In this document: one piece after another, positions 1 to 4,492 of the stretch
Position numbering within the stretch: position 1 is the first letter of the stretch
Layout: every line of letters begins with the position of its first letter
Translations under genes and position numbers: made by a program
Source: a virus
Taxonomy: Duplodnaviria; Heunggongvirae; Uroviricota; Caudoviricetes
Length of the DNA: 5,490 nucleotides
IMG/VR virus record: IMGVR_UViG_2703718772_000017
Direction: 5' to 3' (one strand)
The notes under the pieces: generated by a model
Seen by the model: only the letters and a program-made list of their open reading frames with translations
Database searches by the model: none
Told to the model about the DNA's origin: nothing

Positions 1-233
1 TGACGGCGACGCCGCCCTGACAACATCATAATGTTTAAATGTCATTATTCCTCCCGGCCGGGATAGTGTATTAAATCAGATATGGAGTGGGCTGGCTGTA
101 GTCCGGAAGCCTGAATGACACTCGGGGACTACAGCCCAAGAAATGAAAAAAGGCCACGCAGTTGCGCAGCCTGATAAACCCTGGTTAAAATCCACACGAT
201 AACAACACAACAATATCAGTATCTCATGCTATT

Positions 234-258
234 GCCCGAACCCATTCGGGCATTTTTT
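234..258 (+). terminator. Rho-independent terminator for a rightward transcript entering from the left
   Basis: Stem GCCCGAA (234-240), loop CCCA, stem TTCGGGC (245-251), followed by ATTTTTT (252-258). Confidence 0.6.
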
Positions 259-264
259 ACCCAT

Positions 265-289
265 AAAAAAAGCCCCTCCGGAGAGGGGC
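265..289 (-). terminator. Rho-independent terminator ending the leftward replication-module operon
   Basis: On the minus strand: stem GCCCCTC (283-289), loop of 4 nt, stem GAGGGGC (272-278), then a T7 run (plus-strand A7 at 265-271). It lies back-to-back with the plus-strand terminator. Confidence 0.65.
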
Positions 290-492
290 ATGTTTGCATG
301 CACATTCTTTTTCTTGCATGGTGCCGGGTGCCTCCCGGTGAATTCAGTATCAGCACCTGAATCCGCGATTATCACATATACCTGGTTGCTGATTGCCCCT
401 CCGCACAGGGGGATTCACCATGCAGTAGTATTTTTAATAAACAGCAAATAAAAAAATCAAGCATTATGCAGGCTGTTTCTTTTTATCACCGG

Positions 493-624
493 CTACAGCA
501 ATACCACAATGCCGCAGACCAGCACCCCATCCGCCAGCACCGACATGATTCTGCTGGTGAAATCCACCATCACCACCAGAAACAGCAGGAGTGCAGCCAC
601 AGCCAGGCGCAGTTTTACCGTCAC
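493..624 (-). CDS. Small hydrophobic peptide (43 aa), predicted membrane protein, function unknown
   Basis: Not in the ORF track (short, GTG start). GTG at 624-622 is preceded by GGAGA with a 7-nt spacer. It overlaps the upstream frame's TGA stop as GTGA. Translation is MTVKLRLAVAALLLFLVVMVDFTSRIMSVLADGVLVCGIVVLL, with two hydrophobic stretches. Stop TAG at 495-493. Confidence 0.35.
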   Translation of the reverse strand: MTVKLRLAVAALLLFLVVMVDFTSRIMSVLADGVLVCGIVVLL

Positions 625-1066
625 TGGTGATTCTCCAGACGAAGACCCAGAACACCGGCAATCTCTTCCAGCACCTTGCGCTCTTCCGGCTCAATTATTT
701 CTGACGTAAACGCGGACAGCGCAGGCTGATTACGCAGTACCTGTTCGATCTTCGATTTCTAGGAAGCCTCACATTCACCATCTGCACAGGCCACCAGGTA
801 GGCAGCATTAATAACCGCCTGTGCCAGATTTTGCGGGCATTTTGCCAGTCCTTTCGTGCCTGTTCAGACGGGAATAACCCGTAGCCGGAGTTGTATACAT
901 AACCACTGGCAACCAGCTCTCTGGCAAGAATGCTCATCAGATATCTTGTCGCACCTGTTTTAGCTTCCAACTGTCGTAATGTCTCGCGACCGCTCTGGCG
1001 CACAAGTTCGACCACCTGCTCTTTAATTTTTTTCCCGCTCTTCCTGTGTAAAAACTTTTGCCACAA
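621..1066 (-). pseudogene. Disrupted gene: N-terminal part in one frame, C-terminal part in another frame with an internal amber codon
   Basis: The 695..1066 ORF starts with TTG. Its N-terminal half (KIKEQVVELVRQSGRETLRQLEAKTGATRYLMSILARELVASGYV...) is protein-like, but its C-terminal half is W/R-rich and not protein-like. A different minus frame over 621-863 reads TGTKGLAKCPQNLAQAVINAAYLVACADGECEAS*KSKIEQVLRNQPALSAFTSEIIEPEERKVLEEIAGVLGLRLENHQ, which is protein-like, with TAG at 761-759 and stop TGA at 623-621. The frame switch appears to fall near a direct repeat ATTTTGC-GGGC-ATTTTGC (plus 827-844). Confidence 0.35.
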
Positions 1067-1104
1067 GTCCTCCTTAAAATTACCTCATGACCTGAAATCA
1101 ACAC

Positions 1105-2070
1105 TTATCCCCTGAAACCAGGCGGAATTTCTGTATCCGGTTCAGAAATATGATTCACACAACGCTGTACAGGTGAACGTCCCAAGCGGATGACCAGTTC
1201 GTCCCATTTTTCGCGGAGTTTTGACGGGCTCATGATGTTTTTTACCCAGAATGGATCTCGCTGTACCCGACCAAACATTTCGCAAATTTGTCTGTGGCTT
1301 CTGCCATCCAGCATCCGCATTGTGCGCACGTCATTGGCCCAGGCTGTCCAGTTAGGCTCTTTTGGTCGCATGATCTCTCCATCGTCGCTGGCAGCCTGTT
1401 CGTAAAGGTTCACGATCCGCCCCCAAATCCACTGCGCACACGCCAAATCCTCCCTGCTACCCCACTGGCGTTTTTTCGCACTAAACACAACCGCGTCGGG
1501 GTTCCGGATTAAAAAATCCTGTTCAGCGGTCTGCGGGTCCGGTTGCGAAGCTTCCGGACGAAAAGTGTTTTTATTCTCTGTAGTAATCTCTGTTGTATTC
1601 TCTGTAAGATCATCAGGCCATTTTGACCCGATGACATTGGGTCGTTTTGAACCAATGGAGCGTTTCATTTTGACCTCTTCCATCGTGTCATTTTGACCTG
1701 ATGGAGCGGCGCATTTTGAACCGATGGATTCGTTCAATTTGCCACCATCTAAAAGCTCGTTCCCATAGTTGATCGTGTAGAAATTGGTCATATCGCGCTT
1801 TGATTTATTGAGCTTTTCACAACGCAAAAGCCCCAGCGTTTTCAGACTTGCAAACGCGCGCTTTAACGTTGACTCTGACCAGAATGGGAACTGTTCCAGC
1901 CATTGTTCCGTTGTGTTGTAAATCCAGCGAACACCATCACATTCCATGCCGGAATTGGTATCTCTCAACCAGTAATGCAACTGCTGCAACACAATGGCTT
2001 CATTTAAGCCAATCTTCATCGCAAGCTGTGTGTTTATAACCAGTGGGCGTTCAGCAAAAAGAAGGCTCAT
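1105..2070 (-). CDS. Phage replication initiation protein, lambda O-like architecture with DnaT-like C-terminus
   Basis: ORF-track frame 1105..2124 begins with TTG; the first ATG is at 2070-2068 (MSLLFAERPLV...). A repeated SIGSK/IGSK linker is encoded exactly over the DNA iterons. The C-terminus ...HISEPDTEIPPGFRG resembles the C-terminus of primosomal protein DnaT as recalled from memory. The gene sits downstream of the cro-like and cII-position genes. Confidence 0.8.
   Translation of the reverse strand: MSLLFAERPLVINTQLAMKIGLNEAIVLQQLHYWLRDTNSGMECDGVRWIYNTTEQWLEQFPFWSESTLKRAFASLKTLGLLRCEKLNKSKRDMTNFYTINYGNELLDGGKLNESIGSKCAAPSGQNDTMEEVKMKRSIGSKRPNVIGSKWPDDLTENTTEITTENKNTFRPEASQPDPQTAEQDFLIRNPDAVVFSAKKRQWGSREDLACAQWIWGRIVNLYEQAASDDGEIMRPKEPNWTAWANDVRTMRMLDGRSHRQICEMFGRVQRDPFWVKNIMSPSKLREKWDELVIRLGRSPVQRCVNHISEPDTEIPPGFRG
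1561..1612. other. AT-rich tract adjacent to the iterons (putative DNA-unwinding element)
   Basis: AT-rich stretch containing TTCTCTGTA at 1574-1582 and 1598-1606 and a variant at 1586-1597. It lies immediately downstream of the iterons in the gene's direction, as in lambda ori. Confidence 0.5.
1617..1757. repeat. Origin iterons inside the replication gene (putative ori)
   Basis: Five to six direct repeats at about 23-bp period with core (T/G)CATTTTGA(A/C)C, starting at 1619, 1643, 1666, 1689 and 1712, plus a degenerate copy at 1735. Confidence 0.7.
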
Positions 2071-2572
2071 AATTCCATCCAGCTTTTTGTTGGTATTGCT
2101 GTCGATACGCAAGTTTGAAAGCAATTGCTTTTTCTATAAGTTCGTCAGTTTCACGATCCACTACGGCAGGATCAGCAAAAAGCAGTCCGGACTCCACCAC
2201 ATCGCCATATTCTTTGTTTAACCCGGCGATCATGTACGTGATGCTTTTTCCGTCACTAATTTCACGATACAACCTGAAATCATTAATCCGGATAGCCTCC
2301 ATAATTGCAGGCACTAGCGCCGTGAACTTTTCACGCTTATCCCTAGTGTCGATAGCCTTCCAGCGTTCGAATATCTTCACTCGATTAACGCCAAGCGCTC
2401 GCTGATCAACCGCGCCACCTTCATCTGTGACACGCTGAACATCGATGTTCGGGCGCTCTTTCAAAGCCCAGAATGATTCAGTGATTAATATCGTCGCCTG
2501 CTCCTGTGTCATTCCTGGTCGACATATCCAGGCATCCAGAGCCTCACGAGCCTGTTCAGGAGTGATTTTCAT
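2051..2572 (-). CDS. Hypothetical protein in the cII position (173 aa), possibly YdaT-like
   Basis: ATG at 2572-2570. The start overlaps the dicC-like stop by 17 nt and the stop overlaps the replication gene start by 20 nt, indicating one operon. The segment REKFTALVPAIMEAI resembles my recollection of YdaT; this is unverified. Confidence 0.6.
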   Translation of the reverse strand: MKITPEQAREALDAWICRPGMTQEQATILITESFWALKERPNIDVQRVTDEGGAVDQRALGVNRVKIFERWKAIDTRDKREKFTALVPAIMEAIRINDFRLYREISDGKSITYMIAGLNKEYGDVVESGLLFADPAVVDRETDELIEKAIAFKLAYRQQYQQKAGWNYEPSFC

Positions 2573-4434: not shown

Positions 4435-4492
4435 TTTCTGGTGACGTTTGGCGGTATCAGTTTTACTCCGTGACTGCTCTGCCGCCGTTTTT
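4435..4492 (+). ncRNA. dicF: DicF small RNA (ftsZ-targeting sRNA) with intrinsic terminator
   Basis: TTTCTGGTGACGTTTGGCGGTATCAGTTTTACTCCGTGACTGCTCTGCCGCC followed by a T-run matches DicF as recalled. Terminator stem GGCGG (4451-4455) with CCGCC (4482-4486), then TTTTT (4488-4492). It lies immediately upstream of dicB. Ends are approximate. Confidence 0.75.

Follow-up and report, generated by a model that had tools for sequence, protein, structure and literature searches.

The DNA that we analyzed, a stretch of 5,490 nucleotides referred to here as the window, carries near one end a short open reading frame (ORF) on the minus strand, flanked on one side by gene remnants and on the other by small RNA (sRNA) genes. 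The features on which the analysis turns are as follows.

493 to 624, minus strand: truncated tciB/DUF3927 ORF, with a GTG start at 624-622, 43 sense codons, and a premature TAG at 495-493.
633 to 636, minus strand: GGAG, a Shine-Dalgarno-like sequence 8 nt 5' of the GTG, within the last codons of the TerB frame.
457 to 492, minus strand: leftover 3' part of the ancestral tciB frame (PVIKRNSLHNA and TGA), behind the premature stop, placed by alignment with and translation of the O157 gene.
621 to 829, minus strand: remnant of a TerB-family (tciA-like) gene, whose TGA at 623-621 overlaps the tciB GTG, placed by translation and alignment to the O157 gene.
830 to 1066, minus strand: 5' fragment of a DUF977 gene, fused to the TerB remnant and the last early-operon gene that can be recognized (Pfam DUF977, E = 7e-8, residues 11-78).
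259 to 449, minus strand: STnc100 sRNA gene, directly 3' of tciB (Rfam RF02076, 143 bits versus a gathering score of 47).
197 to 258, plus strand: AgvB, an anti-GcvB sRNA (Rfam, 96.5 bits), convergent with STnc100.

The peptide encoded by the 43-codon ORF, MTVKLRLAVAALLLFLVVMVDFTSRIMSVLADGVLVCGIVVLL, contains two hydrophobic stretches, at approximately residues 5-20 and 26-43, separated by the sequence DFTSR. The 11-residue Kyte-Doolittle means of the two stretches reach 3.3 and 3.1, and the GRAVY of the whole peptide is 2.0. The GTG start shares bases with the TGA that closes another frame, producing the sequence GTGA. The initial annotation had described a GTG start with a Shine-Dalgarno sequence, a GTGA overlap, and a 43-residue product with two hydrophobic stretches, and each of these elements is confirmed on the minus strand, reading from 624 to 493. 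Pfam DUF3927 (PF13064) matches the peptide with 45.6 bits (cut-off, 25 bits; E = 6.8e-12) over profile positions 2-41 of 53, and PHROG 1470, which is labeled [quoted passage not shown] matches with an E value of 1.6e-21 over positions 1-43 of 54; NCBIfam contains no model for the 43-aa peptide. The ORF had been taken to be unannotated, but the exact 43-aa protein has a RefSeq entry (WP_001344632.1, "DUF3927 family protein"), and homologues are annotated as TciB in P1 and other phage records. By homology, the 43-codon ORF is thus more than a chance reading frame; it is a nonsense-truncated tciB gene belonging to a family (Pfam DUF3927, PHROG 1470) that had already been catalogued.

A DUF3927 profile search of 1.84 billion representative proteins identified 118 clusters, nearly all of which comprise proteins of 50-58 aa. 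Three long hits (P0158, P0194, and P0200) were rejected as chimeric or frameshifted calls. Among 36 diverse members, all of which match DUF3927 and none of which consistently matches any other Pfam family, Asp21 and Ser28 are invariant and Phe22 and Asp32 are present in at least 90% of sequences. Also common are Gly33, a basic tail, and a W/F-P pair that follows the second hydrophobic segment; the proline after this segment and the basic residue that follows it are retained in most members, with tryptophan or phenylalanine preceding the proline. Pairwise dN/dS, calculated for 15 intact genes (65 pairs), has a median of 0.26 and reaches 0.63 at most, indicating that at the family level DUF3927 is a real coding gene under purifying selection. 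The distribution of charges, with Lys4 and Arg6 at the N terminus, a net-neutral DFTSR in the middle, and lysine or arginine at the C terminus, is consistent with a hairpin that has both termini on the cytoplasmic side (N-in/C-in). An AlphaFold2 model of the 55-aa form as a monomer comprises one continuous helix spanning residues 2-54 (pLDDT 90, pTM 0.49), and a profile search of the PDB returned no solved relative of TciB. PADLOC yielded no match for the 55-aa protein; for TerB, its sole hit was weak and partial (PDC-S48, E = 0.005, 35 residues), which provides no link to a catalogued defense system. In the searchable literature, we found DUF3927/TciB in annotation tables and transcriptome lists only and no functional study of the family.

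To place the window copy within this family, we aligned it to strain FORC 064 and to E. coli O157:H7 strain 1130, in which the locus (L003) is intact. Codon 44 is TGG in the intact O157 copy and TAG in the window. Translation of the O157 gene gives an ancestral length of 55 codons, and the TAG removes WPVIKRNSLHNA, which includes the conserved W-P pair and the basic tail, and leaves a second hydrophobic segment of only ≈16-18 residues. Translation through the premature stop is identical at all loci that carry the 43-aa allele. The start codon, the Shine-Dalgarno sequence, and the invariant family residues Asp21 and Ser28, as well as Phe22, Asp32, and Gly33, all persist in the 43-codon ORF, so that the peptide retains the core residues of the family and lacks its full-length features, namely a size of 50-58 aa, the W/F-P pair, and the basic C-terminal tail. 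Homologous prophages and phages keep the reading frame and extend it further. The refuting observation named with the initial annotation, a frame not conserved in homologous prophage regions, is therefore not borne out, and the gene is, as that annotation held, a genuine one for a small hydrophobic prophage protein.

The gene immediately upstream is damaged as well. In O157, the intact protein (142 aa) matches Pfam TerB (E = 4.8e-14) and the TerB structure 2JXU in the PDB (E = 2.8e-7), and more weakly DUF533. The remnant in the window has three lesions relative to this gene: an in-frame TAG at 759-761 where O157 has GAG, an in-frame deletion of 156 bp (junction 697/696), and the loss of its 5' end at approximately position 829. 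RefSeq likewise flags the remnant as a pseudogene with an "internal stop." We considered whether the 156-bp deletion had occurred between GAAATT repeats and dropped this idea, as the junction (GAAAT|AATTGAG) contains no exact microhomology. Behind the TAG, the TerB frame runs for 46 open codons, in which the sole start codon is a GTG 17 codons before the end. Because the frame is closed by the TAG and has no usable start, the translational coupling proposed in the initial annotation cannot operate in the window copy, in which the downstream ORF is itself nonsense truncated; of the pairing with an intact TerB gene, only the GTGA overlap remains.

The 43-aa allele is not restricted to the window. 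It occurs on at least 992 contigs, in several different prophage backgrounds, and twice within one genome; identical copies of the 55-aa form are found on at least 966 contigs. In each of 10 sampled genomic contexts of this allele, the same TAG is present in the TerB gene, and 4 of the 10 also carry the 156-bp deletion. That the two nonsense mutations travel together in every context suggests that a module already in decay has spread among prophages. We consider it most likely, with a probability of roughly 80%, that the window copy is a non-functional relic that gives rise to no functional product, since the conserved tail has been lost, the partner gene is dead, and the native transcription context, described below, is gone. 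The best surviving alternative is that translation from the Shine-Dalgarno sequence and GTG of the ORF still yields the 43-aa peptide, which would act alone in the membrane, for instance as a weak toxin, by depolarization, or by modulating a host membrane protein; such an activity would explain why the allele is so widespread. The intact start with GGAG at 8 nt, the high hydrophobicity, the retention of all invariant family residues, and the abundance of the allele across backgrounds are all compatible with such an activity. The allele, however, is always linked to the nonsense TerB gene, as would be expected of neutral decay hitchhiking with the neighboring sRNA and esterase region in clonal and heavily sequenced Shiga toxin-producing E. 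coli (STEC). The peptide also lacks the W-P pair and basic tail and has a shortened second hydrophobic segment, and a scan of window positions 1-1200 found no promoter-like site. We therefore regard a solitary function as unlikely and favor the relic.

To understand how intact copies are organized, we examined 14 loci from different Enterobacterales species, drawn from a narrower alignment than the 36-member set. At 11 of these loci, an intact TerB gene of ≈141 aa shares 1, 4, or 8 nt with the start of DUF3927 (TAATG, TGATG, or GTGA), and the TerB proteins of the paired loci fall into two subtypes that are ≈40% identical to each other. One more locus has a TerB remnant, and the two that lack TerB altogether (L020 and L026) have degenerate DUF3927 frames. 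Locus L016 has no usable upstream ORF and a decayed-looking DUF3927 frame. Overlap of the start codon with the stop codon of the upstream gene is thus a conserved trait of the family. The closest TerB-type loci (L003, L027, and L021) share with the window the ctggag motif that contains its GGAG, in place of which most of the others have ctggaa or ctggat. A search for a stable TerB-TciB fusion, with the two proteins concatenated as the query, gave two candidates only (P0262 and P0264), both of which we rejected as frameshift products because their junctions are scrambled.

We extended the survey to phages using the TerB protein as the query in place of the small peptide. A tblastn search with the peptide itself had returned 13 phage records, with matches in the C-terminal half only, because low-complexity filtering hides the hydrophobic segment nearer the N terminus. 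TerB homologues are present in 131 phage records, of which we opened ten. A DUF3927 gene directly follows TerB in P1, in JLK-2012, in the N4-like phages Pollock and SP-058, and in the Actinobacillus phage pPE4 (hmmsearch E values of 1e-23 to 1e-27). In the Erwinia jumbo phage Asesino, the gene after TerB encodes a divergent protein of 60 aa that likewise has two hydrophobic segments. The Vibrio phage D491 and the Sinorhizobium phage phiM5 have no small membrane ORF after TerB, from which it follows that TerB can work without TciB. The pair, tciAB, occurs in both temperate and virulent phages and is located in lytic-cycle transcription units, namely the ban operon controlled by the C1 operator in P1 and the region downstream of Q in lambdoid phages. 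In Pollock and SP-058, tciB lies among dUTPase and ATPase genes, and the stretch shown contains no lysis genes. The names tciA and tciB are given "by homology" in the P1 record, and a CRISPRi screen of P1 found tciA, tciB, and tciC to be non-essential, with no defect in lytic growth upon knock-down (PMC10695390).

Two Pseudomonas phages show a different arrangement. In AF (L031, 1914-2135) and Holyagarpour (L036, 1934-2137), TerB is followed by a membrane protein of 67-73 aa that has one hydrophobic segment and is unrelated to DUF3927. The two proteins share the motif YG(Y/W)QTERET(R/K)YA, and their genes overlap TerB by 4 nt in AF and follow it after a gap of 4 nt in Holyagarpour. This protein may be an analogous partner of TerB.

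In lambdoid prophages, the intact pair belongs to the late region, in the order Q, tRNAs, TerB, DUF3927, STnc100 sRNA, esterase, holin, and lysozyme. We found this order in the O157 prophage, where the module follows Q-like genes and tRNA-Ile/tRNA-Arg, in phage JLK-2012, where the two genes are annotated as tciA and tciB, and in those contexts of the 43-aa allele that still contain a Q gene. The Q genes upstream of the pair belong to three different Q families. The interval between the tRNAs and TerB contains a terminator-like hairpin, and a scan of this interval found no promoter-like site. Between DUF3927 and the holin lies a 1.85-kb gene for a 616-aa esterase with DUF1737, SASA, and DUF6645 domains. 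Copies are numerous: a search of 5,426 complete E. coli genomes located tciB in 839 of them, at a median of six and a maximum of ten places per positive genome. This late slot is presumably the one in which Stx phages carry stx, the order of the 933W map being Q, tRNAs, stx, the nanS-p esterase, and lysis genes.

Genes for tRNAs directly adjoin tciA-tciB in four phage backgrounds that are not otherwise related: P1 (L028; Asn/Thr and Ile), JLK-2012 (L029; Asn/Thr/Gly), the O157 prophage (L003; Ile/Arg), and Asesino (L030; Trp/Cys). This recurrence suggests that the tRNA genes and tciAB travel as one cargo block.

The proximity of the module to the lysis genes raises the question of whether DUF3927 might be a membrane protein concerned with lysis timing or toxicity, either similar to class II holins or antiholins or similar to Hok, with TerB as its regulator, and not cargo. 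Two hydrophobic segments and a short basic C terminus do recall small holins, and the gene lies upstream of the lysis cassette in lambdoids and directly before two holin genes in pPE4. None of the 36 members, however, matches a Pfam holin or HOK_GEF, the peptide has no match to a PHROG holin, and an Rfam search of the window, which recovered STnc100, AgvB, and DicF, found no Sok RNA, in line with the initial annotation, in which no Hok-like motif was recognized. The lambdoid holin is also set apart from DUF3927 by the esterase gene and the sRNA, and neither the ban operon of P1 nor the dUTPase/ATPase neighborhood of Pollock and SP-058 fits a role in lysis. The broader idea of a toxin, lysis, or exclusion factor is likewise unsupported, the sole experiment that we found being the knock-down showing that P1 can dispense with tciB in lytic growth (PMC10695390). 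A lysis-timing or toxin role thus seems very improbable.

The position of the ORF in the window differs from that of its intact relatives, which follow Q, tRNAs, and TerB and do not stand at the end of a replication operon. In the window, the TerB remnant adjoins the 5' fragment of a DUF977 gene that RefSeq describes as "frameshifted; incomplete." In the O111 genomes that we checked that match at 100% (L001, L006, and L010), a 1.3-kb IS1203 element is located exactly at the position corresponding to window 829/830; its flanks show no clean target duplication, and the window itself contains no IS1203 there. Not one of the 5,426 complete E. coli genomes contains the junction of the window in contiguous form. 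The IS1203 site and the absence of the contiguous junction from complete genomes indicate that the nin/Q/tRNA region was lost by deletion or in an IS-associated rearrangement that placed the remnant after the DUF977 fragment. As for the IS-free junction, either the source strain lost the element or the element was removed during preparation of the window. The DUF977 ORF ends at a TAA at 697-695 that was created beside the 156-bp deletion junction. That the peptide should be the last cistron native to the replication (early right) operon, coupled to the preceding gene, is scarcely credible. It does share a strand with the cro-like, ydaT-like, O-like, and DUF977 genes, with one weak terminator-like hairpin only (917-905) found in between. 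The overlapping frame, however, belongs to a TerB remnant and is closed by a TAG, and the DUF977 frame terminates 71 nt before the ORF. In every intact relative, the gene comes after TerB, whether in the late region or within another operon, and never after replication genes, and the adjacency in the window coincides with the IS1203 site and with a junction seen in none of the complete E. coli genomes. The operon placement in the initial annotation is therefore an artifact of rearrangement, the native partner being TerB and the native location the late region downstream of Q and the tRNAs.

Several other features of the window merit description. The 123-codon ORF at 695-1066 (minus strand) is a chimera that encodes DUF977 residues 11-78 and then continues out of frame through the TerB remnant. 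A 339-aa ORF at 1105-2124 (minus strand), in the position of a replication protein, has no Pfam match at E ≤ 0.01; its relatives are named "hypothetical protein," "phage replication protein O," or "phage replisome organizer" in RefSeq. The DicF sRNA is encoded at 4436-4487 (plus strand, 72.5 bits) in a Qin-like immunity region, upstream of dicB and ydfD. A "dicF-like region" (L028, 1050-1151) is annotated in P1 within the same ban operon as tciABC.

Downstream of the ORF, the operon terminator that had been proposed corresponds in part to what we observe. A strong terminator-like hairpin is present at 289-272 on the minus strand, but it forms part of the STnc100 sRNA. The adjacency of tciB and STnc100 also holds in the intact O157 locus. 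The sRNA starts 8 nt past the ancestral tciB stop in the window and 5 nt past the tciB stop in O157, and with so short a distance STnc100 could derive from the 3' UTR of the tciAB transcript or arise from it by read-through.

Taken together, the conserved overlap, the pairing with TerB, and the hydrophobic segments permit a model for the intact module. Ribosomes finishing TciA would start TciB at the overlapping codon, such that both proteins would be made together. TciB would insert into the inner membrane as an N-in/C-in hairpin and might hold or regulate the cytoplasmic TerB-domain protein, serving as an anchor in trans. The pair would be produced with lytic-cycle transcripts, from the Q-dependent late transcript in lambdoids and from the C1-repressed ban operon in P1, and might act as a dispensable accessory that alters the membrane physiology of the infected cell. 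We infer the anchor role of TciB toward a TerB-fold protein by analogy: in DjlA and in YebE/DUF533, the TerB-like domain has a membrane anchor in cis, and TerB pairs with TerC in ter operons. Against the hairpin and the anchor stand the continuous helix of the AlphaFold2 monomer, the lack of a stable TerB-TciB fusion among the sequences found, and the TerB genes of D491 and phiM5 that no small membrane ORF follows. A bolder proposal combines two ideas, that TerB-TciB is a two-protein membrane module shared by P1, lambdoid, N4-like, and jumbo phages that conditions the inner membrane of the infected cell to withstand, for instance, pore-forming colicins, superinfection, or abortive-infection effectors that act on the membrane, and that the 43-aa allele persists in STEC by virtue of a newly gained, TerB-independent activity. 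We consider this combination a long shot.

The window ORF, as an annotated family member in a decayed state, is of little consequence in itself. The useful outcome is a correction, in that the gene belongs to the late-region tciA-tciB (TerB and DUF3927) accessory module. What interest remains attaches to this module as a whole, which is named by homology alone despite its conservation in temperate and virulent phages and the purifying selection on it, and an intact copy is the sensible object of study.

Comparison with known systems helps to define what tciB resembles. Like Hok/Gef toxins and class II holins, it encodes a small hydrophobic peptide carried by prophages, but it differs from both in having no sequence match to them, no Sok RNA, an obligate pairing with TerB, and a location outside the lysis cassette. 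The resemblance to TerB-TerC, DjlA, and YebE lies in the encoding of a TerB-fold protein beside, or fused with, a membrane element. TciB nonetheless has no detectable similarity to TerC, places two hydrophobic segments within ≈55 aa, and is not accompanied by other ter genes.

Phage P1 provides a member of the same family in the tciA-tciB-tciC genes of its ban operon, with P1 TciB matching the DUF3927 profile built here at E = 5.6e-24. The two proteins share a size class, two hydrophobic segments, the DFTS...S...DG motif, and a position after TerB with a start/stop overlap. Unlike P1 TciB, the window copy ends prematurely, at codon 44 of 55, beside a TerB partner reduced to a pseudogene, and no tciC follows; the lambdoid module is also situated in the late region, in contrast to the C1-controlled early operon of P1. 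A closer counterpart is the intact 55-aa DUF3927 protein of lambdoid prophages in E. coli O157:H7 (for example, WP_000216636.1), whose 168-nt gene differs from the window sequence by a single nucleotide, the G to A change that creates the TAG (99.4% identity). STnc100 and the esterase lie downstream at both loci, whereas O157:H7 retains TGG at codon 44 and an intact 142-aa TerB (WP_001303509.1).
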